Assembly: GCA_043746515.1 (NCBI GenBank)
Contig: JAYTQV010000048.1
Span: 6,676 to 70,675 of the forward strand
Source of the DNA: Actinomycetes bacterium
Lineage (GTDB): Bacteria > Actinomycetota > Actinomycetes > Nanopelagicales > Nanopelagicaceae
Reading direction: 5' to 3'
DNA length: 64,000 bases
The notes beneath the pieces were generated by a model, which did no database searches, was not told the DNA's origin, and saw only the letters and a list, made by a program, of their open reading frames with translations. The position numbers and the translations under genes were made by a program. Positions within the stretch are counted from its first letter, which is position 1. Each line of letters starts with the position of its first letter. Below are positions 12,656 through 34,235 of the stretch, piece after piece.

Positions 12656-13656
12656 GTACCTGCTCCTTTAATTCCAGTTAGTCCAGCTTTAAAAGAACCA
12701 ATGCGCAGACAAGCAGCCTCGCCATTTCCAGCCCGAGAAAGGTTGGGTTCAGTGGTCTGGCATTCAGAAGTAGCCGCAAAACAGCGAGGCGCGAAAGGGC
12801 ATCCTGCAACCGGTTTGGTTAGATCGGGAGCTTCACCGGCAATCGAGAAGAGTCGCTCAACCGGAATATCAGGGTCTGGTACCGATTTGAGGAGCGAGAA
12901 GGTATATGGGTGCTGAGGATCAGCATAAGTCTCTTGGACGCTACCTTTTTCTACAATGCGTCCCCCATACATAACTTGTAGGGATTCACATACTTCGTTG
13001 ATGACAGCCAGATCGTGGGTGACAAAGATCAGACCCATCTGCTCTCGCCTACGCAGGTCAATTAATAGGCGAAGAACTTGAGCTTGAATTGTCACATCCA
13101 AGGCCGTTGTTGGTTCATCACAAAAAAGCATCTTTGGCTCGCCGGCAAGTGCAAGAGCAATGGCTACTCGCTGCCTTAAACCACCAGATAACTGGTGCGG
13201 ATAACTCTTAAGTCGTTTCTCCGCCTCCGGTATGCCCACAAGATTCATTAACTCCAAGGCTTTGGCCTTGGCTTTATCTTTGGAGTAACCCAATCGATAC
13301 CGAGGGACTTCCATGATTTGATCTCCGACAGACAAGACTGGATTGAGAGCTGAGATTGCGTCTTGGAAGACGATGCCGAATTTTTTGGCGAGCACAGTTC
13401 TACGCTTCGATGCTGGCAATGAGAGAACGTTAACACCGTCGACAATAATTTCTCCGCGCGTAATAGTGGCATTGTTTGGGAGGAGATCGAGAATCGCTTT
13501 AAGCGTAATAGATTTTCCAGAACCTGATTCACCGACAATGCCCAACGCTTCACCAGCAGTTACTTCAAAGGAGACACCGCGGATAGCCTTTAACAGCCCT
13601 CGGGATGTGTGGATGTCTACGTGTAAATCATCTACTACCAATAATGGATTACTCAT
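12652..13656 (-). CDS. Peptide ABC transporter ATP-binding protein (DppD/OppD-like)
   Basis: [16 protein letters not shown] and [11 protein letters not shown]. Its C-terminus has the Cys motif CPFAPRC. Confidence 0.9.
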
Positions 13657-14453
13657 TTTGCAAACCTCCTCACAAATCCATCACCGATAAGTGAGAGGGA
13701 GAATCCAACGATAACAACCATGAATCCTGGAATAAATGGAATCCACCAACTTTGCAAAATATAGGCCTGACCTTCTTGGATCATGAGCCCCCATTCAGGA
13801 GTTGGAGAAGGGATTCCTAGACCCAAAAATGTGAGAGTCACAATCGCCAAGATACTCAAGACGATATCGCTCATTGAAAAGACAATTGCCTGCGAAATAA
13901 CATTTGGAAATACGTGGCGACGTAAAATTCTGAAAGTTGGTAGTCCACTCAACTTGGCGGCATGTATGTAGTCGAGTTCCTTCGTTACCAACACACCAGC
14001 GCGAACTATGCGGCAATATGCGACCCACCCCACAACAGTGATTGTGATGATTATTGCTTTGGCTCCAGCCCCGAAGACCAATGAGAGCGCAATTGCGAGG
14101 ACATAGAATGGGAAGGCGATCGTGATGTCGACGATACGCATGATCAGCACATCAAACCAACCTCCGTACCAGCCAGTCACCAACCCAAGAAAAGTTCCAA
14201 AGATAAAAGGAAAGAGAACGGCGAGAACTCCGATGACTAGATCTGTACGAATTCCGTAAATCAAGCGAGTGAGTACATCTCTGCCCAACTGATCTGTCCC
14301 AAGCAGGTGGTGCGAATTTGGCTTGAGTAATGTGTTGACCAAGTCTTGGGCGATGGGATCTTGATGAGTAATCCATGGCGCAAATATTGCTAATATGACA
14401 AGAGTTCCAAAGATGGCGATCCCTACCCAGAATCCGATATTTTTTATTTTCAT
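13653..14453 (-). CDS. Peptide ABC transporter permease (DppC/OppC-like)
   Basis: 266 aa, 6 TM segments, with the EAA-type loop AAKLSGLPTFRILRRHVFPN. Confidence 0.85.
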   Translation of the reverse strand: MKIKNIGFWVGIAIFGTLVILAIFAPWITHQDPIAQDLVNTLLKPNSHHLLGTDQLGRDVLTRLIYGIRTDLVIGVLAVLFPFIFGTFLGLVTGWYGGWFDVLIMRIVDITIAFPFYVLAIALSLVFGAGAKAIIITITVVGWVAYCRIVRAGVLVTKELDYIHAAKLSGLPTFRILRRHVFPNVISQAIVFSMSDIVLSILAIVTLTFLGLGIPSPTPEWGLMIQEGQAYILQSWWIPFIPGFMVVIVGFSLSLIGDGFVRRFAK

Positions 14454-15388
14454 ATTGATACCCTCGGATCAAGAGCAGCGTGAATCAGATCTGTGGCTAA
14501 GTTCACCAAAACAACCGCAACCGCAAAAAATAAAGTAACTCCTTGTACTATGGGAAAATCACGTTGACCAATTGCATTAATCATCAGACTTCCCGTCCCG
14601 GGCAGTGAGAAAACTCGCTCGATAACGACGGTAGCTCCAACCAAATAGGCAATGTTTACACCGAGCACTGTCACAGAGGCAATAAAAGCATTTCGCACCA
14701 CGTGAATTAATAAAATCCGAGAATTTTTCAAGCCTTTAGAACGGGCAGTGAGGACATAATCGGCCTCAAGGATAGAGAGCATGCTAGATCGCAAACTACG
14801 TATCAAAATGGGAGAGAGAGTTAACGCAATAGTTAGGCTGGGGAGAATCATTGCTCGCAGGTGCTCTAGAAAAGTGTTTCCAAATCCACTCACAGGAAAC
14901 CAATGGAGTTTAATTCCAAAGAGCAAGATAAGTTGTAAGCCAGTCCACACTTGCGGCATTCCAAGACCTACGATCGGAATAACTCGAATAATTTGATCGC
15001 GGGCGGATCCTTCGCGAGTAGCTGCCAATATGGCAAGAGGCAAGCTAATCAAAATCGAAAAAATAATTCCCCCGCCAAGAAGCAAAACGGTGACGTTAAG
15101 TCGAGAGTAAATGGCGGTGGAGACGGGTTGTTGAGTAAAGAAACTCGCACCTAGATTTCCATGAATGGCGTGGTTTAAAAAGTTCAGATACTGAGTGAGC
15201 AGAGGTCTATCAATGCCTAAAAGATGATGAATTTCGGCCGAACGTTGGGGGGTTGCTCGATTCCCCAAAATGGTATCCGCGGGATCTCCAGGTATCAGAT
15301 GAATAAGTGAAAATATTCCGATAGAGATACCGAAGAGAACGGGAAATACTTGCAACAATCTCTTACCTGTATAGGTTAAGAAATTCAT
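14450..15388 (-). CDS. Peptide ABC transporter permease (DppB/OppB-like)
   Basis: 312 aa with the EAA loop TARSKGLKNSRILLIHVVRNA. Confidence 0.85.
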   Translation of the reverse strand: MNFLTYTGKRLLQVFPVLFGISIGIFSLIHLIPGDPADTILGNRATPQRSAEIHHLLGIDRPLLTQYLNFLNHAIHGNLGASFFTQQPVSTAIYSRLNVTVLLLGGGIIFSILISLPLAILAATREGSARDQIIRVIPIVGLGMPQVWTGLQLILLFGIKLHWFPVSGFGNTFLEHLRAMILPSLTIALTLSPILIRSLRSSMLSILEADYVLTARSKGLKNSRILLIHVVRNAFIASVTVLGVNIAYLVGATVVIERVFSLPGTGSLMINAIGQRDFPIVQGVTLFFAVAVVLVNLATDLIHAALDPRVSI

Positions 15389-15452
15389 AAAACTACCACC
15401 TACACTTTCAGAAGGGATCTAGAAGGTGCGATTGACTTGCTCCGACTGAAGA

Positions 15453-15506
15453 AGTTCAACTCTCACTCAGCAATGTTTTTATAACAGGCTAAGCAAGAGT
15501 TGAACT
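15453..15506 (-). promoter_or_regulatory. Intercistronic stem-loop between the binding-protein gene and the permease genes
   Basis: Perfect 11-bp inverted repeat agttcaactct (15453-15463) / agagttgaact (15496-15506). It lies just downstream of the binding-protein stop, the position typical of mRNA-stabilising hairpins in ABC operons. Confidence 0.5.
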
Positions 15507-15532
15507 CACGAACTTCACTTCTCTGTGGAGCT

Positions 15533-17067
15533 TTAGTTCTTCTTTACATCCTCCATGTGGTACTGGAGTGTAGGTGTAACTTGGAAGCCAGTGATTTTGC
15601 TACTCCACGTGTACACATATGGTGCGTTGTACACATACATCATCGTTGCTTCATTAGCCGTAATTGTCTGAGCCAAAGAATAAGCCTTTTGGCGCGCAAT
15701 TGGGTTTACAGTGGTCTGACCCAACTTGACCGCTGCTACAACCTTTGGATTGTTGTAACTGGTATAGAAGTCGTTGGTTCCACCCTCAACTGGATTGAGC
15801 GCGAATGTCATAAGCTCATCAGGATCTGAAATATCCATCGTCCAACCAGTGCTGGTAATGTCATAGTTCTGGGCTTTCTGAGTTGCACGCTTGACCGATG
15901 GTTCCTGAGTCTTGATCAAGAGTGTCACGCCGATCTTCTTCAGCGCAGCCTGGAAGATTGAGCTAATAGCTGAATCTTGAACGCTACCGGCTGTAGATAG
16001 ATAGGTGAGCTTCAGGCCCTTCGCATATTTCTTGGAGAGAGCCAACTCTGCAGCGGCCTTCTTCAAGTTGTATTGGATTCCTGGAGTCTTGGGATCGTAG
16101 TAACCGACGTTTGGAGCCATGATCGAGTTCGATGCAGTTCCCAAGCCGGCTAAGACAACTTTAATGATTGATTTGCGATCCAAGGCATAAGAGAGTGCAC
16201 GGCGTACATGTACATCTGCGAGTGCTGGAACTTTTTCGTTCATAGCCAAGTATTCAGATTGCGCAGCCGGGAAAGCTTTACCCGTGATACCAGGAGTCTT
16301 TAGAGCTTGAGCGAATGAGGTTGAAGGGGGAAATTCGTTGATATCTGACTGTCCTGATTGGAGATCGAGTGCACGTGTATTGTCATCTGCAACATAACGC
16401 CAATCAACAGAGTTTAGATATGGCTTGCCTGGCTGCCAGTAGCTCTTGTTAGCTACAAACTTGATGTCGGTTCCTGGAGTCCATGATTGAAGCATGAACG
16501 GACCTGTTCCAACTGGTGCCTTGAAGAATGCATCTGCAGTCATTCCGCCGTAGTTATTTGGGAGGATTGCGTTAGAAAAGCAGGCAAGATCCGAGAGCAT
16601 TGGGGCCCAAGGGGTTTTGGTTTTGATGATAACTGTGTCAGGTGTTGGTGCCGTGACAGAGGCGACTTGAGTAAGAAGGAATCCCCAACCACTGCCCTTC
16701 TCAGCTGTATCCAGGGAGAATTTGACATCAGCAGAAGTCATTGGTGTGCCATCACTGAATTTTACATCTGTACGCAATTTGATCGTCCAAGTGAGTTTAT
16801 CCGACCCAACTGTTCCACTCTTTGCCAACCATGGCCGAACTGACTTGCCGTCCTGGTTAATCATGAAGAGAGGTTCGAAGATTTGCTGCTGAATAAAGAT
16901 GGAGTCATTCTGAGCAAGATCAGGATTAAATGTTGCAAAATCTTGGTTTCTCTCGAGGATCAAGTCCCCTTTAGGTGAGGCATTATCCGCGCGCGCCGAA
17001 ACGGCCATGGCTGAGGACATGACGACAGCCAGTGCCATTGTCAGACCCAGGATTTTTTTAGTTTTCA
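15533..17067 (-). CDS. ABC transporter substrate-binding protein, family 5 (peptide/nickel type)
   Basis: SBP_bac_5-like sequence. I moved the start to GTG 17067, which has AAGGAG 8 nt upstream. This gives the signal peptide VKTKKILGLTMALAVVMSSAMAVSARA. Confidence 0.85.
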
Positions 17068-17160
17068 CTATGTGGTGCTCCTTTTCTGGAATATATCCGA
17101 AAGCTCTACAGCTCTGAGGGAGAAGCGAAGGCTGCATAATCTTCGTTGAAGCAGCCCAAT

Positions 17161-17203
17161 TTTGCGTAACAGCATTCAACTCGCAGTTAGGAGATTACGC
17201 AAA
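17161..17203 (-). promoter_or_regulatory. Inverted repeat in the leader/promoter region of the peptide-transporter operon
   Basis: tttgcgtaa (17161-17169) / ttacgcaaa (17195-17203), 9 bp perfect, about 95-135 nt upstream of the binding-protein start. Function unknown. Confidence 0.3.
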
Positions 17204-22725: not shown

Positions 22726-23895
22726 CTATGGAGTTGGATTGGTATAAATAAAAGAATTGACCGTGTTTTGAGACTCGCTCTTCGGAATGTTGATCACTCC
22801 CTCAACTTGATTAGCCTCAGGAATACGAGAAGCTCCAGGACGCATGGCCCCACTCTCCAACAAGAGTGCAACTGTTCCGGTAACATGAGGGGTTGCCATC
22901 GAAGTTCCACTTATCGTCTTGATCGCATCACTACCGCCAATCCATGCAGAGGTAATCTCTGAGCCTGGGGCAATGATGTCTACACACTTGCCATAATTTG
23001 AGTAGTAGGCATAATTGTTTGAGCTATCACTGGCAGCTACTGTGATCGCCTTAGAATCTCGAGCTGGAGAATAATTACAGGCATCGGCTGCACTATTTCC
23101 GGCTGCAACCACCACCGAAATTCCATCGTTAACAACTTTGTTTACCGCCTTATCAAGTGCCCGCGAAACCCCAGTACTCAAACTCATATTAACTACTGCT
23201 TTCCCGCCTTGTTGGTGTTGAACTACCCAATCAAGTCCCGCAATCACTCCACTTACAGTTCCGCTGCCAAAGCAATCGAGTACTCGAACTGGAGTAATCG
23301 TTGCTTGTTTGGCAACCCCATAAACCGTACCTGCGATTGTTCCGGAGACGTGCGTCCCATGACCCTGACAATCTTCAATTCCGTGTCCATCATTAACGCC
23401 CGCGAATCCAGGATTTATCCGTCCAGTAAATTCACTATTGGTCGTATTAATCCCCGTATCTAAAACATATACCGTGACACCTTTTCCAGTGAATGAATAT
23501 GTATACGTGGAGTCAACCACATTTGGTGAGTCAATACGAGAAATTCCCCACGTAGCCGGATTCTCAATTTGTAGGGCATCAGCTTTAACCACCTGGTCTG
23601 GTTCTATAAATTCAACGCTGGCTCTCTGTTGAAGATCGCACACTTCCCCTGAAGTGAGCGATCCAGCGAAACCATTTAGAATCGCGGAATAACTCTCCTG
23701 GGGAATGACATGATTTCCATCTACGTTTTGGAGTTCATTGTTTTCTGAAACTCCATTATTAAAAGAGACAATATAGTTACCTGCCGTCGCGCCACAATTC
23801 AACTTAGACTTTGCAGCAAATGAATCAGGGGCAAAAGTTGATATCAATACGACAATGGATATCACGGGGATGATAAAACGCATCTTTGAAGTCAT
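22726..23895 (-). CDS. Secreted subtilisin-like serine protease (peptidase S8, proteinase-K-like, with an I9-type propeptide)
   Basis: Catalytic motifs VLDTGI, HGTHVSGT and GTSMATPHV. Signal peptide MTSKMRFIIPVISIVVLISTFAPDSFAA. The start is ambiguous (23916 GTG, 23895 ATG or 23883 ATG). Confidence 0.85.
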   Translation of the reverse strand: MTSKMRFIIPVISIVVLISTFAPDSFAAKSKLNCGATAGNYIVSFNNGVSENNELQNVDGNHVIPQESYSAILNGFAGSLTSGEVCDLQQRASVEFIEPDQVVKADALQIENPATWGISRIDSPNVVDSTYTYSFTGKGVTVYVLDTGINTTNSEFTGRINPGFAGVNDGHGIEDCQGHGTHVSGTIAGTVYGVAKQATITPVRVLDCFGSGTVSGVIAGLDWVVQHQQGGKAVVNMSLSTGVSRALDKAVNKVVNDGISVVVAAGNSAADACNYSPARDSKAITVAASDSSNNYAYYSNYGKCVDIIAPGSEITSAWIGGSDAIKTISGTSMATPHVTGTVALLLESGAMRPGASRIPEANQVEGVINIPKSESQNTVNSFIYTNPTP

Positions 23896-23912
23896 ATTGA
23901 AGTCTAACCTAC

Positions 23913-24680
23913 TCACGCGCCACTACCGAGTAATGACGTTGTTAAACAGACAGAAATTAACGCGCCTAAGATCATAAATGGACCAAAGGGGAGAGCTGTT
24001 TTACGTGTACCTTTTTGCGAAATTATGATTGCTATTCCTACGACACTACCCATCGCGAAACTCACCATTGCAGCGATGTAAACCGAAATTGCGCTGATAT
24101 AACCCACATAGAGGCCAATGGAGGCAGCGAGTTTGACATCTCCCATCCCCATTCCACCTTTAGATAATAAATTTACCAACCAAAAGAAGGCGCTATACAA
24201 AATAGATGCAATAAGTGCACTGCGAAGATGCTCAAAGTGATGATTCATGAAGGCATCCAGAGTTAATAGCACTAACCCACATAAATAAAGTGCAGCATTG
24301 AGACCATTAGGAAGTCGATGCCATTGAAAATCAATTGCTGAGAGTGCCACACCCAAAATCACAAAGACTGCCCAGGCTGCGATCAGTGTAAGGTGATGAA
24401 AAACGATGAAAGGTATGAAGGTCGCTGCTGCTGTGATCAGTTCTAAGTAGAGATAACTTCTGGAGAAACTTTCACTGCAATTTCTACATTTACCTCTCAA
24501 TCGTAGATATCCTAGAAGAGGAATATTGTCCTTATTTTGGATTTGTATTCCGCAGAGCGTGCATTTAGATCGACCCAACAGACTCTCTCCGTGAGGTACC
24601 CGAGCCACTAAAACCGTATTAAATGATCCAAAAGTGAGTCCCAAAATAAGAACAAGAAGATAAAGCAAGAGCGGTGGCAT
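23913..24680 (-). CDS. pilD: Prepilin peptidase (A24 family)
   Basis: CTLCG and CRNCS zinc-type pairs, the GMGDVKL aspartyl-protease motif, and a polytopic topology. I moved the start to ATG 24680 (MPPLLLYLLV) to clear the pilin gene. Confidence 0.85.
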   Translation of the reverse strand: MPPLLLYLLVLILGLTFGSFNTVLVARVPHGESLLGRSKCTLCGIQIQNKDNIPLLGYLRLRGKCRNCSESFSRSYLYLELITAAATFIPFIVFHHLTLIAAWAVFVILGVALSAIDFQWHRLPNGLNAALYLCGLVLLTLDAFMNHHFEHLRSALIASILYSAFFWLVNLLSKGGMGMGDVKLAASIGLYVGYISAISVYIAAMVSFAMGSVVGIAIIISQKGTRKTALPFGPFMILGALISVCLTTSLLGSGA

Positions 24681-24712
24681 ATTCACTCCTACCACCGCTC
24701 CCACTTTAGGGG

Positions 24713-25186
24713 TTATATTCCGGCCGCGGCGCAACCTGCGGGACTACTACCCACCGCAGGACCAACAATAATCACAGGTGCTGCTAACGCGACACCGGCT
24801 TTTGCAGTTACGAGATAGGCAGTGACATCCGTTGGTATTTTTGAAATGAATGAGGGCGTGAGTGCAGCAAGATCAGCTGCTTGATATGGAGTGAAGTCGT
24901 ATAACACAGTGCTTCCGATATTAGGTATTACCCCGCCAGTGACAGCAGTTCCAGTTGCCGCAGGAAGGGTTGCATTCACAGCGTAGTTCGAGAATGCAGA
25001 GTGAACATTTGAGGTATCTTGTGAACAGGCCTTTGCCTTGGCATCGGCACTAGTGCCAGAAAGAGCAACCACGACAATGGCTGCCAAAATTCCGATGATC
25101 AGGATAACAATCAAGAGTTCGATAAGCGTGAACCCGTCTTGACCAGCATCCTTGCGGGCTTTTGCCCTTCGTAGTACTTCGTGCAT
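24713..25186 (-). CDS. Type IV pilin-like protein (probable major pilin)
   Basis: Prepilin leader ending in G, then FTLIELLIVILIIGILAAI (E at +5). I moved the start to ATG 25186, which has AAGGAG upstream. Confidence 0.8.
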   Translation of the reverse strand: MHEVLRRAKARKDAGQDGFTLIELLIVILIIGILAAIVVVALSGTSADAKAKACSQDTSNVHSAFSNYAVNATLPAATGTAVTGGVIPNIGSTVLYDFTPYQAADLAALTPSFISKIPTDVTAYLVTAKAGVALAAPVIIVGPAVGSSPAGCAAAGI

Positions 25187-25209
25187 GATTGTTCTCCTTC
25201 TATGTGGGG

Positions 25210-25857
25210 TTAGTTCAGCAGAGTGCAAGCCGAGGGAGCCGTATTTCCAAGACGGTCCCCTTTGGCGTTGTAAAGATAGACATCGTATGAACTTGCATTA
25301 TTTGTCAAGGCGTTGAGAATTCCACCGGACGAGTTGATAGGTGTAGGTGGAATAGTCAGTACCGATGTGACACTGAATGTCACTGTGTATGTAGGGCCAG
25401 TACCAGCGAAAGAAGCAACCGTCCAGGTTCCATCTATATTCACGGAATCTATTCCGAAAACTTGGATCGTCTCCCCTACGGTTATTGGTGGAAAATACGA
25501 AGAGGCGAATGACAAAGTAGCCACCTGCGAAGCCAGTGCATAGTTGGTAATCGAGTAGGAACCTAATTGCATAGTAAAATTGTTCGAAAAAGAACTAATC
25601 AATCCAGCATTGATATATGTTGGTTGTAAAGATAAGAGTGATGGAGGTAGAACCCCATTGTTATCACTTTGATATGAAGATACACCTAAGGAAACAGCTT
25701 GATAGGCCGTTTTACAAGCATTCTGCATGGAAGTAACACGACTAGAACCTAAAGCAACATAGGTTATTCCCGAAAGAATGCCTAAGACGCAAAGAACAAC
25801 GATTAATTCAATCAATGTGAGTCCACTTTCCTGCCGATGAGGTGGCGCAATTTTCAT
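25210..25857 (-). CDS. Pseudopilin/minor pilin with a prepilin-type N-terminus
   Basis: ESG|LTLIELIVVLCVLGILSG. It overlaps the upstream gene by 4 nt. Confidence 0.7.
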   Translation of the reverse strand: MKIAPPHRQESGLTLIELIVVLCVLGILSGITYVALGSSRVTSMQNACKTAYQAVSLGVSSYQSDNNGVLPPSLLSLQPTYINAGLISSFSNNFTMQLGSYSITNYALASQVATLSFASSYFPPITVGETIQVFGIDSVNIDGTWTVASFAGTGPTYTVTFSVTSVLTIPPTPINSSGGILNALTNNASSYDVYLYNAKGDRLGNTAPSACTLLN

Positions 25858-27392
25858 GATCCAGTACTCGTAATCGAGAAGTTGCTGGACGGATTTAGTC
25901 CAGATTTATCGTCAATAACAATTACATGTTGAATGACCCTGCCACTTGGAGTTGTAAAGGAAATTTTCAGATGACGGCCAGTGACTGCAGGTCCGACTAA
26001 AACTGGAAAGGCACAGGAGCCACCCCCAGTCATGCAGGTGAACTTCGCACCGTTTGACACCACCCCTCCGTCAATTTCATGTTGATCTCTCTGGCCTTCG
26101 TCAACTCTTACATTCGATCCCGAAGCTAATACCGTTCCGTAGATAAATGTCTTTGCAGTTGCCGTTGCGTACGCGTAAAAAAGAGGAGTATTACCAGTAT
26201 GAACTGCTGGACAATTTGAACTATTTCCTCGTTTAACGGCACACACTATTGCGTGACTACTGTCGGCAGAGATGATGGCAAAACTCTGTCCTATTGCTTG
26301 ACGAGGTCCACAAATTCTAAAATCTCCATCACGGTTTGAAAGAGTTGCCGAGTCACCAAATACCAACTGGGTTCCAGATACCTCCGTACTTGTTTGCGGA
26401 TCAGCAGGCGTAACACCGTGATTGTAAGAACACCCTGTGGCTAATCCTGAAATGTCATACTTAACATTTGCATCAGAAGGATCATTGTGAACCAGAATGC
26501 TCTCTGAAAGATCGTTTGTGTCCCGCCTTACATCAAGAACTTTCGTCCCTTTAAAGTAAAGCACGCCTCGCCCTAACTCGATATCGATCCCGTGAGACCA
26601 ACTTTCAGAATCAGAGCAATCTCTATCAGTGTATGTACCATTTGATTTATAGGTGCGGATTCTCTCTTGTGAGAATAGAACATTTAATTGGTCAATCGCC
26701 TCATCATTGTAATTTCCACTTGGGATCAAGATTGGAGTATTGAGTGCGGAACAACTCTTGGGCAGATAAGAATTTATTGACCCCGTATTTCCGGTCCCTG
26801 GATCAAAGACAGGTAAAACCGGGATGACAGAGCTTGTTGGAAGATTAGACGCATTTGTTGAAATAACTCCCGCAGAAGCTGAAACTCCAGATATAGCTCC
26901 TCCTGAAGGAGTAAGAATTTGAGTTGCAGTAACGCTTCCGGAAGTCACGCTGACGTTATCGCTTTGCGATTCAATAGAACTATTAAATGCATAAGACCCG
27001 ATAATAGAAACCCCATTATCCACGCCGGTGGAGGTTCCGTTTGGAGAAGTAGTCGTCACCGATGAGGTGGCTAAAGGTTGATTACTGCCGGTAACAGGTA
27101 CACAAGAAACAGTTACACCAGAAACAACTGTTGGAAGTCCACAATTTGGTTGGGTAATGGAGTCAAACGCGGCTGAACCGAGAGTCGGATTAATAGTCAA
27201 TTGCTCCAGGACTGTTGAAGTAGCAACAGCCACTTGGCTCGCACTCATTGTTTGTGCTGCGAGTCGCTGACCTCCTGACCCTGATGCCTGCGTGAGCAAG
27301 AGTGAAACTCCGAGCCAACCACCGAGAATCGTTACGAAGATTAAAACAACAGCTAGAACAGAACCAACCTCAGAATCTCGACCGTTCATCAT
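25854..27392 (-). CDS. Large pilus-operon protein with a TadG/TadE-like N-terminal anchor; the rest is unassigned
   Basis: I moved the start to ATGATG 27392, which has AAGGAG upstream and an ATGA overlap with the preceding stop. N-terminus MMNGRDSEVGSVLAVVLIFVTILGGWLG. The ~480 aa that follow are Ser/Thr/Gly/Cys-rich with no motif I recognise. Confidence 0.6.
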   Translation of the reverse strand: MMNGRDSEVGSVLAVVLIFVTILGGWLGVSLLLTQASGSGGQRLAAQTMSASQVAVATSTVLEQLTINPTLGSAAFDSITQPNCGLPTVVSGVTVSCVPVTGSNQPLATSSVTTTSPNGTSTGVDNGVSIIGSYAFNSSIESQSDNVSVTSGSVTATQILTPSGGAISGVSASAGVISTNASNLPTSSVIPVLPVFDPGTGNTGSINSYLPKSCSALNTPILIPSGNYNDEAIDQLNVLFSQERIRTYKSNGTYTDRDCSDSESWSHGIDIELGRGVLYFKGTKVLDVRRDTNDLSESILVHNDPSDANVKYDISGLATGCSYNHGVTPADPQTSTEVSGTQLVFGDSATLSNRDGDFRICGPRQAIGQSFAIISADSSHAIVCAVKRGNSSNCPAVHTGNTPLFYAYATATAKTFIYGTVLASGSNVRVDEGQRDQHEIDGGVVSNGAKFTCMTGGGSCAFPVLVGPAVTGRHLKISFTTPSGRVIQHVIVIDDKSGLNPSSNFSITSTGS

Positions 27393-28474
27393 GAGATGCT
27401 CCTTGCGGCCAATATGACTTGCGTAGGATATTGGTTGGCACTGGAACCGATCGTTGCAGGAACGGTAAATGTAAGTCCAGGATTTGTCGCAGCAACATTG
27501 AGAAATGTATTCGTTGGGCAAGTTCCACTTGAAACCACTGAAGCAACAAAGGTTGCACATTTGAGTGCCGTTGACCAGTCCACGTTTGAATTTGATAGAG
27601 CAAGATTGTTCCGCAACATTTGTGAAGTAGCGCTGGTAATTGCGATCTGTGGAGCCGCACATTGGATTCTCCACAACTGACCATACGAACTACCAACTGA
27701 GCGCACCTCATAGCCCACGAATTTGTTATAGACAAGGATTCCGGGGCTGGTAGTAACACCTGTCCCAAAATTATTTAATGTGAAAGTTTTATTTCCTGGG
27801 TTGGTAGCAATAACTATGGCACCAATAGAGTTATAAGTCGTCGGAACCATTCCTGAAACAGTAATGCTCTGTCCAGGTGCAAAGGCAATCTGACCTGAAT
27901 ACGTATAGGTTGCAATCACACCTGTTCCGATCGCGGAGGTGATCGTTGCTCCCGATTGCTGACTAAAAGTGACTATCGGGCGTACAAATGAATAAGTCGA
28001 ATCGCTGGGAAGCCAGGTACTACATTGAGTAAGAAAGCTCCCCACTCCACTAGCAATTCCAGTGGTGGAATTGAGAATTGTAAATGTGGTTGCCGATGGA
28101 ACGGAGGTAATCGTTGCATTTGAAACATCATATCCACTCGGTACTAAGCCTGAAATAGAAATATTTTGACCCACAGTTAGTGTGTTAGTCCCGGAGTGTG
28201 TGTAGGTAACGGTTACTCCATCACCGGAAACACCTGTGATCGAACTAGCTCCCGCGGCTGTCGGTATGATAAAACCATTGGATTGCTCTACATCTTTAGT
28301 GAATGTGGCATCCAATATAGACACTCCTGAACTGACAAGTGATGTACTTTGACTGTGGCTAATGGACGCCACGCTGGCATCAAAAGTTTTTGCTATTCCC
28401 AATGTCAGAATGGATGAAAGAAAAACTGTTAAAATTACCTCGAGAAGAGTGACTCCCTGATCGGAAGTATTCAA
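27389..28474 (-). CDS. Long pseudopilin with a prepilin-type N-terminus and two copies of a ~60-aa repeat
   Basis: MNTSDQG|VTLLEVILTVFL. TTG start directly after the upstream TAA. The internal repeats are described in the findings. Confidence 0.65.
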   Translation of the reverse strand: MNTSDQGVTLLEVILTVFLSSILTLGIAKTFDASVASISHSQSTSLVSSGVSILDATFTKDVEQSNGFIIPTAAGASSITGVSGDGVTVTYTHSGTNTLTVGQNISISGLVPSGYDVSNATITSVPSATTFTILNSTTGIASGVGSFLTQCSTWLPSDSTYSFVRPIVTFSQQSGATITSAIGTGVIATYTYSGQIAFAPGQSITVSGMVPTTYNSIGAIVIATNPGNKTFTLNNFGTGVTTSPGILVYNKFVGYEVRSVGSSYGQLWRIQCAAPQIAITSATSQMLRNNLALSNSNVDWSTALKCATFVASVVSSGTCPTNTFLNVAATNPGLTFTVPATIGSSANQYPTQVILAARSIS

Positions 28475-29410
28475 TTAGATCGCCGCCACTATGGTTCTTG
28501 ACAATTGTTTTCCATGTACTGTCGTACTCACTGTAATTTGCTGAATACTCACGCACTTGGTCAGACCAACAAAACCGCCTGATGCAAAAGTACCGGTAGC
28601 AGAGTTGGCCACCACAAATTGGGTACTCGTAGCACTGACAACCGTCGCAGAGGCTAGATTAAAGACTGAGGGGCTAACGCCAGAAATAGATACGTTGTCT
28701 CCCACCGCAAAAGGAGTTGGCGACACATAAGTGTAGGTAATAGCAGAGCCATTGGCAGATATTCCCGTGATATTTGCCTTAGGAACACTCTGACAAGGAG
28801 TCCAATTGATTGAAGAATTGTTCACTTGCACCAAAACTGAAACGATTGTAAGCGGAAGATTTTTGGAGACGGAAACGCCTTGACTAGTAACTGTGAACTT
28901 ATAAATCGCAGAACTTTCGGCTATCGGGGTTCCGGAAATAACACCATTCGCAGAGAGTGAGAGCCCGGTAGGTAAAACAGGAGAGACACCCCATGTGTAG
29001 GTTGACAGACCATTCACAGCCGAAAGAGCCGTTGAGTAAGGGTGAAAGATTCCTCCAGATGGAGACTGCGCAATCGGCAGTGCCGAAGTGGAAATTGCAA
29101 GGGATCCTGAGGTTACGGACGGTGGCGCAATAGCCGCGGTTGATAGCTGGTATGGCTCAGGATTTACAGGTGAGCAAGGTTGAAAAATCTGTAGTTGAAT
29201 TTGTTGCGAAGCCGAGTTCAAGTTAGCCATCGCGGTGCCCGTGAGATTAACCCTGTCCGAGAGAGGTTGAGATAGTGCAATCGTTCCTACAATTGTCAAC
29301 CCGAGCAAGCCCATGATCACGGCTGAAACGATTACTTCTACCAAAGATTCACCACGGTCGTAACGGCGTTTTTTATAGTTATATTTTTCGAAATTTTCTC
29401 TCATACTCAT
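28475..29410 (-). CDS. Long pseudopilin with a prepilin-type N-terminus, an Ig-like (He_PIG-type) segment and one copy of the ~60-aa repeat
   Basis: RG|ESLVEVIVSAVIMGLLG (E at +5). The segment YTWGVSPVLPTGLSLSANGVISGTPIAE resembles the putative-Ig-domain pattern. Confidence 0.65.
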   Translation of the reverse strand: MSMRENFEKYNYKKRRYDRGESLVEVIVSAVIMGLLGLTIVGTIALSQPLSDRVNLTGTAMANLNSASQQIQLQIFQPCSPVNPEPYQLSTAAIAPPSVTSGSLAISTSALPIAQSPSGGIFHPYSTALSAVNGLSTYTWGVSPVLPTGLSLSANGVISGTPIAESSAIYKFTVTSQGVSVSKNLPLTIVSVLVQVNNSSINWTPCQSVPKANITGISANGSAITYTYVSPTPFAVGDNVSISGVSPSVFNLASATVVSATSTQFVVANSATGTFASGGFVGLTKCVSIQQITVSTTVHGKQLSRTIVAAI

Positions 29411-30735
29411 ACTTTTACCCCGTTATATATTCCATACATCGCCGATACCAGGGCAACAGCTACGAACCCAACTCCGCCACCAATCAATAGGAGAGTAATC
29501 GGCTCTAGGAGAGAAGTGAAATTCTTCATGCGGTGATCTAGTTCATCAGAGTAGAAGCTGGCTGCTTGTTGCAACTGAGATTGAAGTTGACCGGACTCTT
29601 CCCCAATGCGAAGAATTTGAATAGCAGCAATTGGGAAAATTTTGTACTCGGATAATGGCTCAGCTAGGCCCTCACCATTTAAAACTCTCACTCGAGTCGC
29701 ACTCACAGCCTGTTGAAAGACCATGTTTCCAGTTGCTTTCCCAGACAGTTCCAGCGCGTCAGGAAGCGGTACCTTTGATTTCACTAGGGTTGCCAACACG
29801 CGACAGAAACGTTCCAGAGATACCAGTCGTGCTAAACCACCAAACACTGGGACAGATAGAACTAAACGATCGAGAATCAAACGACTCCTACGATTACGTA
29901 ACGCTAGTACGAAGGCAATAATAAATAGCAATATGACCGAACCAATAGCCCACCACCACTTCGTAATGAAATGTGTGCCGTTAAGAAGCATCCGAGTAGT
30001 GAGTGGTAGCCGAACATTCAGAGAAGCGAAGAAGTCTTGGAACCGTGGTAACACCACTAGCGACATGACGGTAACAGCGACAAGAGTGAGTGTGAGAAGG
30101 ACTGCAGGATAAATCATCGCCGAACGCACAGCACGGCGAGATCGAAGGTCTCGTTCCAAATAAATATTGAGGGTTTGTAGCGCTTCTACTAGGTCCCCGC
30201 TTCGTTCAGCTGCTCCTAAAATGGTGGCATAGTAAGTAGGAAAAACATGTGGATGCCGTGAGACGGACTCACTAAGAGTTGCTCCTCCTTCGATATCTTG
30301 CACCAACTCCCCCAAAATTAACTGCATTTTCTTGTGGTCAGTTGTCTTGGCTAAAATTGCCAGCCCGCGAGCTGCAGAAATACCAGCTTGCGAAAAGGAG
30401 GAGAGTTGTCGAGTCGTTTGCAAGAGAACTTCCAGTGGAACTGATTTTCCAAACTCCATAGCAAGTAAAGATTTGTGAACCTTGAGCTCGAGACTTTGGA
30501 TTCCATCACGCTGTAATCCGTACTGTGCTTCACCCCAAGTGGCCGCCTTGACAGTTCCTTTCTTTTTTTCTCCTGTTTCCAAAACTCCAGAATACTTGTA
30601 CATGTTAATAATTTTCTTCTGCTTCTTGGCATTCGCTTTAAGCCCCTTTTTCGCCTTTGGTAACTTTGCCTGCTTCTGCTTTTTTACTGACTCTGTTGAA
30701 TTTATAACCTCTATTGGGTTCGCTAGATCAGTCAT
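29407..30735 (-). CDS. pilC: Type IV pilus/T2SS platform protein (GspF/PilC family)
   Basis: 442 aa with two T2SSF-type repeats and 3 TM segments. It has a Lys-rich N-terminal extension. Confidence 0.85.
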   Translation of the reverse strand: MTDLANPIEVINSTESVKKQKQAKLPKAKKGLKANAKKQKKIINMYKYSGVLETGEKKKGTVKAATWGEAQYGLQRDGIQSLELKVHKSLLAMEFGKSVPLEVLLQTTRQLSSFSQAGISAARGLAILAKTTDHKKMQLILGELVQDIEGGATLSESVSRHPHVFPTYYATILGAAERSGDLVEALQTLNIYLERDLRSRRAVRSAMIYPAVLLTLTLVAVTVMSLVVLPRFQDFFASLNVRLPLTTRMLLNGTHFITKWWWAIGSVILLFIIAFVLALRNRRSRLILDRLVLSVPVFGGLARLVSLERFCRVLATLVKSKVPLPDALELSGKATGNMVFQQAVSATRVRVLNGEGLAEPLSEYKIFPIAAIQILRIGEESGQLQSQLQQAASFYSDELDHRMKNFTSLLEPITLLLIGGGVGFVAVALVSAMYGIYNGVKV

Positions 30736-32350
30736 CTGACACCATTAACGTAAGGGCTTCGGCGAGAGTTGTAATTCCTTCAGTCGCTAAGCGAACGGCT
30801 TCATAATCCATTCCAGTCATTCCAGATTCAGAAGCATATTTGCGAAATTCATTTGGTTCAGGTCGAGAGACAATGAGGTCACTTAGCGCCTCTGTCATCT
30901 CTAGTACTTGATACGTCGCGATGCGGTCGCGGAACCCAGAGCCCCCACAAAGAGTGCAGCCAACTCCACGTGCTAATTTTGTTGTGGTAAATCCATATGA
31001 CTTTAAAGTTCTTAACTCATCAACATTGGCTGCGTATACGACAGTACAAAAACGACAATTTCTCCTTACCAATCTTTGGGAGATGACTCCCCTTAGGGAT
31101 GAAGCGACGAGGTGAGGTTCAATATCCATTTGGAGCAATCGATAGATGGCCCCCACTGAATCTGTCGCGTGGATCGAACTGAAAACTAAATGTCCTGTGA
31201 GGGCAGCTTGCACTGATATTCTCGCTGTTTCAGCATCTCGAGTTTCGCCAACCAAAATGATGTCAGGATCTTGGCGCAGTACCGCGCGCAGTTGAACCGC
31301 AAAACCTGCATTGACCGGATCGATAATGGGAATCTGAGTGATTCGAGGTACTACATATTCAACAGGATCTTCAATTGTTACGATATTTTTCCATTCAACT
31401 GTCACTGCTTTGATTCCACTATGAAGCGTTGTTGTCTTTCCACTACCAGTTGGCCCAGCCACCATAACCAACCCACTAGTTGATCGAATCATGGTGGAAA
31501 AAATGTCTAGTTGTTTGCCGCTCATGCCGAGCGTTTCCAGCGAGACCGATTGTTTGCGTGCATCATGCAGACGCAAAACTAACTTCTCACCATGCATTGT
31601 TGTAACTGACGAAACGCGTATATCAATATGACGATCACCAACAGTGGCGGAAAATTGACCGTCTTGGGGGCGCCTGCGCTCCACGATATTCATTTGAGAA
31701 AGTACTTTTACTCGACTATTAACGGCTGGACCCAACCGTGCGGGCAACACCACAAGTAGACGCAGACGACCATCCACACGAATTCTCACTACCAGTTCAT
31801 CTTTATAAGGTTCGAAATGCACATCGCTAGCACGTTCCAGGACGGCACGTTCGATTACTTGTTGTACCAAATTGGAGATTGGTGCTTCTCCAACTTCCGA
31901 GATGAGAATGTCAAAAAGATGTCCTTTTGATTTGGCAATACTTGCAGTTAAGGAAATGGCTTCGCGTATCTCATTGGGAGTAGCTGGCTTCAATTTGATT
32001 TTAAGATCAACACTGGCCGCATAATCTCGAATCGACTGCCAGGATTCTTTGGGAGCTCCGATGACGAGCGTGTCCCCGTCCCAACGAAGTCCTAGGCAAT
32101 CGAACTCGCTCATTAAAGAATCAGGTAAAGCGGCATTTGCAGAGAGGAAGGACTCAGTCGTGAGGGCTGCGACTATCGGATCTTGAATATTGAGATTTGT
32201 CGGAATTAGGGAGAAATCATCTGAACTATTCGATTCTTGGGGTTCTGGCTGAGCTTGGAGTGAAGCGAGGGTTGGGAATGGAAGTACGTCGGCGCCAGCA
32301 CCCTCGTTCTCGCCTGAATCAAAAAGCGGCGCTACTTCCAGGATTGACAT
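30728..32350 (-). CDS. pilB: Type IV pilus assembly ATPase (GspE/PilB family)
   Basis: Walker A GPTGSGKTT, Asp/His boxes, and the tetracysteine CRFC...CTLCGGSG. GGAGGGG RBS upstream. Confidence 0.9.
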   Translation of the reverse strand: MSILEVAPLFDSGENEGAGADVLPFPTLASLQAQPEPQESNSSDDFSLIPTNLNIQDPIVAALTTESFLSANAALPDSLMSEFDCLGLRWDGDTLVIGAPKESWQSIRDYAASVDLKIKLKPATPNEIREAISLTASIAKSKGHLFDILISEVGEAPISNLVQQVIERAVLERASDVHFEPYKDELVVRIRVDGRLRLLVVLPARLGPAVNSRVKVLSQMNIVERRRPQDGQFSATVGDRHIDIRVSSVTTMHGEKLVLRLHDARKQSVSLETLGMSGKQLDIFSTMIRSTSGLVMVAGPTGSGKTTTLHSGIKAVTVEWKNIVTIEDPVEYVVPRITQIPIIDPVNAGFAVQLRAVLRQDPDIILVGETRDAETARISVQAALTGHLVFSSIHATDSVGAIYRLLQMDIEPHLVASSLRGVISQRLVRRNCRFCTVVYAANVDELRTLKSYGFTTTKLARGVGCTLCGGSGFRDRIATYQVLEMTEALSDLIVSRPEPNEFRKYASESGMTGMDYEAVRLATEGITTLAEALTLMVSDD

Positions 32351-32388
32351 CTCTACCCCTCCATTCCATCTGGTCTGTAACCCAAAAC

Positions 32389-32440
32389 TTTACAAAATTT
32401 TGTCACATTAAATTACAAAATTGCCCCAATAAATTGACAA
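32389..32440 (-). promoter_or_regulatory. Putative pilB-operon promoter with a palindromic operator candidate
   Basis: Read on the minus strand: TTGTCA (32440-32435), a 17-nt spacer and TGTAAT (32417-32412). The perfect 12-bp palindrome ACAAAATTTTGT (32392-32403) lies at about +1. The direct repeat TTACAAAATT occurs at 32390-32399 and 32413-32422. Confidence 0.4.
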
Positions 32441-32515
32441 TTTACTCGCTTTGCCAAGGAATGTAAAGAATTTTTAGATTTAATTTAGAATTTCTGTTTA
32501 GTGGGAGTGTGGAAC

Positions 32516-32564
32516 AAAAAGAGAGCACCCCATGGGCGAAATGCCCTTGGGGTGCTCTCTTTTT
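32516..32564 (-). terminator. Strong, bidirectional-looking rho-independent terminator downstream of the small peptide ORF
   Basis: Arms aaaaagagagcacccca (32516-32532) / tggggtgctctcttttt (32548-32564), with an inner gggc/gccc pairing. T-runs follow on both strands. Confidence 0.8.
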
Positions 32565-32581
32565 GAAGAAAACGTATTAGC

Positions 32582-32743
32582 TTAGGAGAATTGGCAGCAC
32601 GTTGGCGGGCCAGCCATGGTGACGGTTTGACTCGAAGCAGTTGAAGTGGATGACTTCTTAAGCGTGGAAGCGAAAGAAGGTGTTGCACTGAGAACGATTC
32701 CCATCGAGAGTGCAACGGATATTGCAATTACCTTTTTGACCAT
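32582..32743 (-). CDS. Small secreted peptide precursor (53 aa) ending in a vicinal Cys pair; hypothetical
   Basis: Hand-translated because it falls below the ORF-track cut-off: MVKKVIAISVALSMGIVLSATPSFASTLKKSSTSTASSQTVTMAGPPTCCQFS*. GAGGGGA lies 9 nt upstream of ATG 32743. It has a Sec-type signal with an SFA|S site. The terminator begins 17 nt after the stop. Confidence 0.6.
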   Translation of the reverse strand: MVKKVIAISVALSMGIVLSATPSFASTLKKSSTSTASSQTVTMAGPPTCCQFS

Positions 32744-32873
32744 GTGATTCATTCCCCTCGATTAAAGCGTGAAACCGGTCTCATGATCGGCTTTATGAAA
32801 CTCCGTATTTTTTTGCTGATGTCAATATGTGTAACACTCGAAGTAAAGCACTGTCATGTGATACTGTCAAGAT

Positions 32874-34235
32874 ATGGGAAATCAAACATTTGGCGAACGT
32901 CTTCGTCAAATTCGAGTGAATGCAGGATTAACTCAACCTGAACTTGCTACGGGGATAACTAGCGTAAGCCACATCTCACTGATCGAGTCTAATAAGCGAC
33001 AGCCTTCTTCAGAGATTGTTTCTAACCTTGCCACTCGTCTAGGTGTGCCGGTCGATTTTCTGCGCGAAGGGCCTGAATCGGAATCTAATCTAAATCGACG
33101 CAAAGAATATCTCTTCGCGGAAATTTCCTTCAAAAATGGTGATGCTAAATTTGCCCAAGGCTTATTAGAAAAAGTCATTAAACAGAGTTCGTACCCTACG
33201 GATTTGCAGTTCGAAGTAAATGTGCGATCTCTATTTGCTCAAACATTCGCTAAATTCGGCGACTTTGAGCGAGCCTCGGCAGAACTGCAGGAGGCTATCT
33301 CATTAGCTGAAATTGCTGGGCTTCCGCTTCAGGTGATTGAAATGAAAATTGCTCAATCGTACTTTTTCAAAGAATCAGGTGATTTTGTCACCGCACTCGA
33401 AATAATTGAGAATGCTGAAAAAGCAGTTCCAGCGCAATTACAAAAGAGTGCTCCCTTTGCGCGATTACTTTCCAGCAAGATTTCGATTCATTACCTACGT
33501 GGAGATTACATTCGCGCAACTCAAATCTCCCAAAATGCCATGGCAATATTCGATGATCAAACGGATCCAGTTGCTCGAGCATCTATTTACTGGAATGCCA
33601 GTCTGGCAGCTGATGCGATGCAAAACTCCAGCCAAGCACTTTTACTGGCACAAAGAGCTGCTGGTCTTTTTTCTGAATCTGAAGATCGCCAAGCGGAAGG
33701 AAATCTACGTGTTGCTATTGCATGGTTGCTGACTCGTCAGACTCCACCCGATGTCAATGGTGCTAGATCACAATTAGATCGTGCACATATTCTTCTCGAA
33801 GCTAATGGGACATCAGTTGATGTAACTTATTATCACATTGAATTGGCAAGAGTTGAGTGGCTAAGTGGCAACTATGAAGAGGCACTCGCATTAAGCCAGC
33901 TTGCTATTGCAGATACCGATCCCATGAAGGAACGTTTACAACGAGCTGATGCATATTTGCTTTCTGCCCGCTCTCACATCAGTTTAGGTAATGAAGCAGA
34001 GTCAACCATGAACTTACTTGCTGCGAGAAGTAGTCTCTTGGAGATGGAGCCATCTAGGCAGAACGCTTTAGCGTGGCGTGAATTAGGTGATATTTACTCT
34101 AGTCTTGATTATCTCGAAGATGCGATTAATGCATATCGAGAAGCCCTGCAGGAGGCCGGTGTCTCCGCGAGCCCGCTAGCATTCTCCGAATTCGAACGCG
34201 CAAAAGAGACTGTAAAAGTCCTTAGAAAAAATTAA
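32874..34235 (+). CDS. HTH (XRE family) transcriptional regulator with a long C-terminal TPR-like domain
   Basis: N-terminal FGERLRQIRVNAGLTQPELATGITSVSHISLIESNKRQPSSEIVSNLATRLGV is an XRE-type HTH. The remaining ~380 aa are repetitive helical hairpins (e.g. YEEALALSQLAI, LEDAINAYREALQ). There is no Shine-Dalgarno sequence. TGtGATACT lies 8 nt upstream of the ATG, so the mRNA is probably leaderless. Confidence 0.75.
   Translation: MGNQTFGERLRQIRVNAGLTQPELATGITSVSHISLIESNKRQPSSEIVSNLATRLGVPVDFLREGPESESNLNRRKEYLFAEISFKNGDAKFAQGLLEKVIKQSSYPTDLQFEVNVRSLFAQTFAKFGDFERASAELQEAISLAEIAGLPLQVIEMKIAQSYFFKESGDFVTALEIIENAEKAVPAQLQKSAPFARLLSSKISIHYLRGDYIRATQISQNAMAIFDDQTDPVARASIYWNASLAADAMQNSSQALLLAQRAAGLFSESEDRQAEGNLRVAIAWLLTRQTPPDVNGARSQLDRAHILLEANGTSVDVTYYHIELARVEWLSGNYEEALALSQLAIADTDPMKERLQRADAYLLSARSHISLGNEAESTMNLLAARSSLLEMEPSRQNALAWRELGDIYSSLDYLEDAINAYREALQEAGVSASPLAFSEFERAKETVKVLRKN

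Follow-up and report, generated by a model that had tools for sequence, protein, structure and literature searches.

A predicted Sec-exported peptide with a C-terminal cysteine pair beside an HTH-TPR regulator: a putative RRNPP-like cassette in actinomycetes

What is encoded in the gap between the gene for a PilB-like ATPase (pilB) and the gene for a helix-turn-helix (HTH) regulator with tetratricopeptide repeats (TPRs) in an uncultured freshwater actinomycete? The gap lies within 64,000 nt of contig JAYTQV010000048.1 (assembly GCA_043746515.1), the stretch of DNA analysed here and called the window below. In the source assemblies this gap is uncalled, and the peptide gene that we describe was never called. 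An earlier note on this DNA, made from the sequence alone, had proposed an unlisted open reading frame (ORF) of 53 codons at 32582-32743, read as a genuine gene for a Sec-exported peptide with a functional C-terminal Cys pair. We conclude with high confidence that the ORF encodes a translated, secreted small protein. With moderate confidence we further propose, from the sequences compared below, that this peptide is the signalling ligand of the HTH-TPR regulator, the two genes forming an RRNPP-like cassette of the PlcR/PapR type.

The ORF runs on the minus strand from an ATG at 32743 to a TAA at 32584-32582, and its translation, MVKKVIAISVALSMGIVLSATPSFASTLKKSSTSTASSQTVTMAGPPTCCQFS, is identical to the earlier reading. 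The Shine-Dalgarno (SD) sequence GAGGGGA that had been claimed 9 nt upstream of the ATG is present at 32759-32753, and either GAGGGGA or GAGAGGA stands at an unchanged distance from the peptide ATG in 13 aligned loci. An alternative in-frame ATG at 32752, which gives the 56-aa version of the ORF listing, abuts GAGGGGA, and the homologues align from 32743; the earlier choice of 32743 as the right start is therefore borne out by both the SD position and the alignment. The peptide consists of a Sec-type signal peptide (residues 1-25), a Ser/Thr-rich variable linker, the sequence M-A-G-P-P-T-C-C and the tail QFS, and its only cysteines are residues 49-50 at the C-terminus. The KK n-region, hydrophobic core, cleavage site and mature part of about 28 aa that had been described are all recovered by sequence heuristics: the n-region carries two Lys (charge +2), the 12-residue hydrophobic maximum is 2.43 (Kyte-Doolittle), and a cut predicted between S-F-A (residues 23-25, with Pro at -4) and the following Ser would leave a 28-aa product. 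When we applied a strict filter, requiring a signal-peptide-like N-terminus and CC in the last 8 residues, to both strands of the 64-kb window, exactly one ORF passed, that at 32582-32743.

A predicted intrinsic terminator begins 16-17 nt past the peptide stop and separates the gene from pilB. Its stem is built from 18 + 4 pairs flanking a one-base bulge per side (arms 32515-32537 and 32543-32565, 96% complementary), and the fold reaches -41.9 kcal/mol (z = -8.8), a value that none of 200 shuffled sequences attained. A sliding 56-nt fold of the whole window on both strands found this to be the strongest hairpin, at -42.6 against -31.5 kcal/mol for the next, in agreement with the claim that the strongest hairpin of the window stands about 17 nt after the stop; the 80-aa ORF at 32485-32727, said to run through it in another frame, exists as stated. 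At this position Rfam returned sub-threshold hairpin look-alikes only and no family. The proposal that the gene forms a monocistronic unit holds in the window, where the strong terminator lies 3' of the gene, but probably not in the closest clade (L002, L004, L006 and L007; L numbers are our labels for the loci compared), in which a pilin-like gene with a He_PIG domain follows the peptide stop after 26-32 nt. This gap contains no hairpin, and the peptide gene is therefore probably co-transcribed with the pilin-like gene in these loci.

Is the frame conserved? Using the regulator at 32874-34235 as an anchor we fetched one genome contig (a metagenome-assembled genome (MAG), Actinomycetes bacterium, regulator identity 74%), 64 metagenome loci (25-73%) and Streptomyces plasmids, and counted in the 38 loci that are flanked by 350 nt of DNA or more. 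A small ORF of 39-71 aa adjoins the regulator in 31 of the 38, giving 27 distinct peptides, and these neighbouring ORFs all begin with a basic n-region and a hydrophobic core, have a cleavage site of the small-x-small type and carry CC in the last 8 residues. Across the loci with a peptide the regulators are 25-74% identical to that of the window and the G+C content ranges from 47 to 73%. ORFs passing the filter number 31 in 56 kb beside the regulators, against a single one in 145 kb of other DNA from these loci. No interruption of the frame is seen in the syntenic loci, and the ratio of nonsynonymous to synonymous substitution rates (dN/dS) is 0.10-0.44 at a dS of 0.4-2.5 (Nei-Gojobori, 11 pairs), from which we conclude that it is under purifying selection. 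The peptide motif persists from freshwater contigs of 47% G+C to soil contigs of 73% G+C, where the DNA is no longer alignable. The signal peptide and the C-terminal CC are the conserved parts of the product and the middle is variable. The two checks suggested in the earlier note, on the frame and on these two protein features, thus both support its claim of a genuine gene for an exported Cys-pair peptide.

The peptide family is visible only through the regulator neighbourhoods and then through a peptide profile. With the 53-aa peptide alone a word-index homology search found no homologue, no model in Pfam, NCBIfam or PADLOC matched it, and the window peptide is absent from a collection of 15 billion proteins in which its regulator is present at 100% identity. 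The profile search added further members of 42-50 aa ending in [H/I/N/A/G]PP[K/R/T]CC, all of them unnamed or annotated as "hypothetical protein" and none with a Pfam domain.

Within the family the N-terminus follows the pattern M-x-[K/R]-K, about 16 hydrophobic residues and (T/A/S)-P-S-x-A, with the predicted signal peptidase cut directly after this Ala and, in all freshwater clades, after residue 25. By the same heuristics a pattern of the Sec/signal peptidase I (SPI) type is also found in all 22 relatives examined. The linker is rich in Ser, Thr and Lys and varies both in sequence and by 0-17 residues in length, and the C-terminal core reads [G/x]-P-[P/D/Q]-x-C-C, the two cysteines being the only invariant columns. 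In most soil members CC is the very C-terminus. In the freshwater clades it is followed by a further 2-5 residues, hypervariable even among close relatives (QFS, GSVFN, GRILN, GGSHS, GSIAG), and the eight residues before this tail are nearly fixed as ..I/V-x-M-A-G-P-P-x-C-C. The predicted secreted product is 14-30 residues long across the family. Conserved ends with a disposable middle give these sequences the look of a pro-peptide with an active C-terminal piece.

The C-terminal motif varies from one regulator clade to another. Regulators at 71-100% identity to that of the window are accompanied by MAGPP[T/V/L]CC and a tail, one at 74% (L001) by QGPQTCCVM, those at 57-63% by FGPD[L/F]CC, those at 52-54% by PP[T/S/V]CC followed by two residues ([Y/V/S][Y/V]), and those at 32-36% by PP[K/R]CC.

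The peptide and regulator genes are divergent and 130 bp apart in the window, and 130-146 bp apart in the freshwater clades. On a 630-kb Streptomyces plasmid the peptide gene (product WP_123083198.1, annotated hypothetical protein, ending ..KDIPLCC) follows that of the regulator at a distance of 144 nt and in the same orientation; the two genes stay paired even though their order has changed. The genes downstream of the peptide differ between clades, and the regulator is thus the only constant partner of the peptide gene. Across the clades examined no third gene, whether for a protease, a transporter or a modifying enzyme, is conserved. In the Streptomyces sp. ADI95-16 plasmid pADI95-16a (L066, 4518-7284), where the CC-peptide gene is downstream of the regulator, a gene for a second small secreted-looking hypothetical protein comes next (4813-5025), followed by a convergent BTAD/SARP-type regulator.

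The DNA that the two divergent genes share is far more conserved beside the regulator start than the proteins would predict. In 13 loci a block of about 50 nt abutting the regulator start codon stands out from the remainder of the spacer by its much higher conservation. On the peptide strand this block holds TTGACA (32870-32865), a 17-nt spacer and TTTACT (32847-32842); a sigma-70 scan passes over the pair, the -10 being without A at position 2, and it may represent a weak promoter, possibly with activator dependence. In the direction of the regulator the block spells an invariant extended -10, TGnTAnTGT, which stops 6 nt short of the ATG at 32874, and no SD is present, so the regulator mRNA appears to be leaderless. 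Leaderless mRNAs are common in actinobacteria. A dyad-like TGTTA-CACATAT-TGACA is found at 32836-32820 in the window, and in L016 and L021 TGTnA-N7-TGACA forms a perfect dyad, which would be the kind of site bound by an HTH dimer. A conserved box of 29 nt (43 of 45 bits) occurs once per locus. The 5' leader of the peptide mRNA can form a small, weakly supported hairpin, for which RNAalifold gives 6 pairs, 4 of them with compensatory changes, yet only -2.1 kcal/mol; in some relatives it is followed by a T-run.

Could the regulator be a peptide receptor? The protein matches HTH_3 (1.2e-9) and TPR_12 (1.3e-12) in Pfam, the latter above its cut-off. An AlphaFold2 model built from a 32-sequence alignment (predicted local distance difference test 87.5, predicted template modelling score 0.72) consists of a five-helix HTH domain followed by about 19 helices of a TPR superhelix. 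Beyond the HTH, W240-N241, W284, R326/W329 and W401-R402-E403 are invariant residues of the regulator. A profile search of all PDB sequences placed PlcR first (3.3e-12), then PrgX, ComR and other XRE proteins, and by sequence the HTH is most like that of PlcR. With the regulator model as query, Foldseek recovered the PlcR:PapR7:DNA complex at an E value of 1.3e-7 over the full PlcR chain, and also MalT domain III. At E<=1e-30 the regulator family comprises 348 representatives of clusters at 50% identity, almost all of them full-length proteins of 435-475 aa, and the named sources are Actinomycetes bacterium and Candidatus Nanopelagicaceae MAGs, Streptomyces, Nonomuraea and Streptosporangium. 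PADLOC gave HTH-level matches only for the regulator. A phage origin, as for arbitrium, was considered and rejected, as a search of viral contigs yielded no protein related to the regulator.

A five-criterion computational signature has been defined for RRNPP systems (Bernard et al. 2023, PMC10075063), and we compared the cassette with it point by point. For a pro-peptide of 10-100 aa we find 53 aa in the window and 39-71 aa in the relatives, and for the Sec/SPI signal a match by heuristics, the original definition using SignalP (PMC10075063). The receptor, expected at 250-500 aa, has 453 aa, and its TPRs are represented by the TPR_12 match together with an all-helical superhelix model. The genes, expected as direct neighbours, are so at 130 bp in the window and adjoin each other in 31 of the 38 loci. 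On the grounds of this signature and of an HTH most like that of PlcR we propose an RRNPP-like mechanism. The 53-aa precursor would leave the cell by the Sec route, with signal peptidase I cleaving it behind S-F-A (residue 25), and the 28-aa product, or a shorter C-terminal fragment containing M-A-G-P-P-T-C-C, would accumulate outside the cell, the tail after CC probably being dispensable or trimmed. Re-import could plausibly proceed through an Opp-type permease such as that encoded at 11642-17179. The peptide would then bind the concave face of the TPR superhelix and alter HTH binding to the 50-bp promoter/operator, as the architecture and the conserved DNA suggest, with feedback on both genes, that of the peptide and the leaderless one of the regulator. 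From adjacency, the likely output would be the neighbouring surface or lifestyle genes, namely the pilus operon in the window and pilin-like, giant adhesin-like or EAL genes in relatives. We infer secretion, processing, import, peptide binding and the regulon alike from the sequences.

Several observations weigh against this mechanism. The relation of ligand to receptor is drawn from synteny, architecture and the variation of the motif by clade, and such variation would also arise from simple co-inheritance. In Pfam the TPR domain of the regulator matches generic TPR families only, TPR_MalT falling below the cut-off, and no significant match of the RNPP_C type was found in it. The PlcR match in the profile search is mostly HTH, which contributes 36.9 of 49.4 bits, with one TPR stretch at 13.6 bits, and the top Foldseek matches are generic peptide-binding TPR superhelices (LGN/Pins, OGT), PlcR ranking 27th. 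No CC-peptide lies near 5 of the 38 regulators (L027, L031, L057, L065 and L067). Within the window, including the region upstream of pilB, there is no second copy of the conserved 29-nt box or of an 18-nt pattern. As far as we know, it is unusual for RRNPP peptides exported by Sec to contain cysteine, and two vicinal Cys would become oxidised in the extracellular medium. Planktonic freshwater actinobacteria living at low density are also not obvious users of quorum sensing.

What else could such a peptide do? The main rival reading, in our judgement unlikely, is that the secreted peptide acts outside the cell and that its gene is merely under the control of the regulator, the peptide not being its ligand. 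This role could be that of a thiol- or metal-binding (Cu/Zn), redox, or pilus- or adhesin-associated factor. That the invariant element is a Cys pair hints at disulfide or metal chemistry over shape recognition, and the neighbours include surface structures (the pilus operon, pilin-like He_PIG proteins and giant fn3/cadherin-like proteins); genes of the ferric-reductase-like and SCO1/SenC kinds further downstream in L004 may bear on metal binding, and the TPR domain of the regulator is only generically TPR-like. However, the downstream genes (pili, adhesins, isochorismatase, EAL) are not conserved across clades whereas the regulator partner is, the pairing is kept through the change of gene order, and products of 14-30 residues with a disposable linker fit a signal better than a structural or enzymatic factor.

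A ribosomally synthesised and post-translationally modified peptide (RiPP) precursor, or a Sec-dependent bacteriocin, with the Cys modified or fold-forming, is far less probable. The short precursor and the conserved C-terminal Cys would suit it, and actinomycetes are rich in RiPPs with a modified C-terminal Cys, such as the aminovinyl-cysteine (AviCys) of linaridins, but in no clade is a modifying enzyme, dedicated transporter or immunity gene conserved alongside, the N-terminus is by heuristics a classical Sec signal rather than a RiPP leader, the mature part is mostly low-complexity linker, and no Pfam or NCBIfam model matches the peptide. Lanthipeptide, linaridin and thioamitide precursors in particular were rejected for the want of a conserved modifying enzyme in any clade and for the Sec-type leader. 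The chance that the ORF is untranslated, and the region a 5' leader, a small RNA or a spacer with a terminator that separates the regulator from pilB, we regard as very slight. The gene callers of the source assemblies skipped it and the word-index search gave no homologue for its 53 aa, yet dN/dS is well below 1 at saturating dS, the amino-acid motif is kept across 47-73% G+C where the DNA is unalignable, the SD spacing is kept, and no Rfam family matches. Three further classes were rejected. A type IV prepilin or pseudopilin would carry a class III signal (G before the cut, then F/M-x-x-x-E), which is lacking, as is any Pfam match, while four neighbouring proteins match N_methyl; for a lipoprotein there is no lipobox [LVI][ASTVI][GAS]C, the cysteines lying only at residues 49-50; and for an Agr-type precursor the neighbours, an HTH-TPR regulator and PilB, and the Sec-type signal do not fit.

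Read as a signalling ligand and its receptor, the pair resembles PlcR-PapR of the Bacillus cereus group, in which an XRE-HTH and TPR factor is likewise encoded beside a gene for a Sec-exported pro-peptide of about 50 aa with a conserved active C-terminus, and whose regulator targets a palindromic box in its own locus, a feature that is putative here. It differs in its host, Actinomycetota instead of Bacillota, in the size of the receptor (453 aa and some 9-10 TPR-like repeats here, about 285 aa in PlcR), in a similarity to PlcR that is marginal outside the HTH (13.6 bits), in the divergent rather than co-directional genes and in the sequence of the box. The PapR core, ADLPFEF, is unrelated to the P-P-x-C-C core found here. 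The PapR signal is described as re-imported by Opp (PMC4701985), and Opp is given as the import route of RRNPP peptides (PMC4701985, PMC10569065).

The motif-by-clade pattern of our family resembles the pherotypes of NprR-NprX (Bacillus) and AimR-AimP (arbitrium, SPbeta-like phages). Their HTH and TPR receptors are about 390-420 aa long, their Sec-exported pro-peptides of about 43 aa yield signals of 6-8 residues, and their peptide code diversifies clade by clade. Unlike in those systems the core here is Cys-Cys, which to our knowledge is not known in either, and beyond the HTH and generic TPRs neither NprR nor AimR has a detectable sequence relation to the regulator. Rap-Phr of Bacillus shares with the cassette a Sec-exported pro-peptide, a C-terminal active oligopeptide, a TPR receptor and import by Opp (PMC10569065), the import being putative here. 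Rap is without an HTH and acts as a phosphatase or inhibitor, whereas the receptor here has a DNA-binding domain. A gene for an S8 subtilase ends the adjacent pilus operon here, and Phr peptides are matured by subtilisin-type S8 proteases.

AgrD of staphylococci and clostridia is likewise a short ribosomal precursor with a Cys near the C-terminus of its signal; in the signal YSTCDFIM the Cys lies a few residues from the end, as in ..PPTCCQFS here. AgrD, however, lacks a Sec signal, depends on AgrB and forms a thiolactone that a histidine kinase in the membrane detects, whereas no gene of the AgrB, AgrC or kinase type adjoins the peptide gene here and most family members end exactly at CC, leaving no ring to close. 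ComR-ComS of streptococcal competence, an RRNPP-type HTH-TPR receptor with a small peptide gene, switches on DNA-uptake and pilus machinery. The cassette here abuts a PilB/PilC/pseudopilin operon, its control of which is putative; unlike the peptide here, ComS has no Sec signal and is exported by PptAB.

How new would such a system be? In a survey of RRNPP systems the Actinomycetota are described as signalling with small molecules such as gamma-butyrolactones, and the peptide systems as those of Firmicutes (PMC10075063). In the library of open-access full texts that we searched, we found no description of an actinobacterial pair of HTH-TPR regulator and pro-peptide. The cassette would then work like an RRNPP system in a new phylum and with a new Cys-Cys signal motif. 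We know of no counterpart to the Cys-Cys core among signals of the RRNPP kind, and the signal chemistry would be new. A bolder reading, which we put forward tentatively and consider doubtful, is that this is the first native peptide pheromone of the RRNPP kind in Actinomycetota, its vicinal-dithiol P-P-x-C-C signal being gated by redox state or metal as well as by density and its output comprising pili, adhesins and c-di-GMP turnover. If true, such signalling would reach from the abundant planktonic lineages of fresh waters to actinomycetes of soil and plasmids of Streptomyces, from which relatives of the window pair come. With hundreds of diverged members, it would carry peptide signalling through TPR receptors into another of the major phyla of Gram-positive bacteria, and would challenge the view of cytoplasmic peptide sensing by TPR receptors as a Firmicutes trait. 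We also know of no regulator of the HTH-TPR type for the pili and adhesins of uncultured freshwater actinobacteria, for which the cassette suggests an input. The absence of the peptide from a 15-billion-protein collection that holds its regulator exposes an annotation gap, and the homologues on Streptomyces plasmids, such as the pair of Streptomyces goshikiensis or Streptomyces sp. Mg1 with a peptide ending in ..KDIPLCC, offer a genetically tractable system. The features of the window are collected below.

Table 1. Positions of the cassette and of associated features in the window
Feature	Position	Strand	Basis or remarks
Pro-peptide gene	32582..32743	-	53 codons + stop; sequence, homologous ORFs, dN/dS, signal-peptide heuristics
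Shine-Dalgarno GAGGGGA	32753..32759	-	9 nt before ATG 32743
Small leader hairpin (AGCCG...CGGTT)	32773..32792	-	peptide mRNA 5' leader
Conserved putative divergent promoter/operator block	32820..32873		alignment of 13 intergenic regions
HTH-TPR regulator, putative cognate receptor	32874..34235	+	453 aa; XRE-type HTH residues 5-65, TPR superhelix
Predicted intrinsic terminator	32515..32565	-	imperfect 22-pair stem, 5-nt loop, then T-run
Type IV pilus/pseudopilus operon, candidate regulated neighbour	22726..32350	-	Pfam + NCBIfam
Opp/Dpp-type peptide ABC importer	11642..17179	-	Pfam; candidate re-import route, 15 kb away, generic transporter

The pilus operon encodes a PilB/GspE-like ATPase, a PilC/GspF protein, four N_methyl pilin-like proteins (one with a He_PIG Ig domain), a 606-aa protein without a Pfam match, an A24 prepilin peptidase and an S8 subtilase. 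Its adjacency to the cassette suggests that the two are perhaps tied. The PilB-like ATPase also matches ComGA at 8.2e-73, below the cut-off of that model. The AT-rich leader of about 165 nt before pilB (32351-32514) contains the direct repeat TTACAAAATT twice, 23 nt apart (32390-32399 and 32413-32422), and a promoter-like TTTACA-17-TAAATT on the minus strand (32467-32439), which points to a promoter proper to the pilus operon and to a regulatory site distinct from that of the cassette. A 9-nt match to ATTGACATC at the pilB start codon, tried as a regulon site, is probably due to chance. The S8 subtilase (22726-23916, minus strand) is of the secreted type with an I9 inhibitor pro-domain, and its gene is the last of the operon, directly after that for the A24 prepilin peptidase; speculatively, it could process pilins, adhesins or the pro-peptide. 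As listed, the 606-aa ORF (25854-27674, minus strand) overlaps the preceding pilin-like ORF (27389-28474, minus strand) by 285 nt, so that its true start is probably further downstream.

In other loci the gene downstream of the peptide encodes a giant secreted repeat or fn3/cadherin-like protein (L001, L008, L009) or an isochorismatase (L014). In the high-GC soil loci L052:2351-3628 and L055:1006-2184, whose peptides end in IPPRCC, it encodes an EAL-domain protein (c-di-GMP phosphodiesterase). Most of these variable neighbours are surface or lifestyle genes. In a freshwater relative, at L004:97-1863 and 2-3 kb downstream of the cassette, lie genes for a ferric-reductase-like membrane protein and a homologue of the SCO1/SenC copper chaperone.

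The peptide importer is complete, with a binding protein of 548 aa (SBP_bac_5), two permeases, of which one has OppC_N, and two ATPases with oligo_HPY tails, and a strong terminator hairpin falls within its region at 15453-15508. Further strong hairpins on the minus strand are found at 8949-9004 and 24657-24712 (-31.5 and -29.7 kcal/mol). The latter, with a perfect stem of 19 bp, directly follows the 3' end of the N_methyl gene (24713-25228) and falls within the 5' end of the prepilin-peptidase ORF that overlaps this gene (23913-24734).

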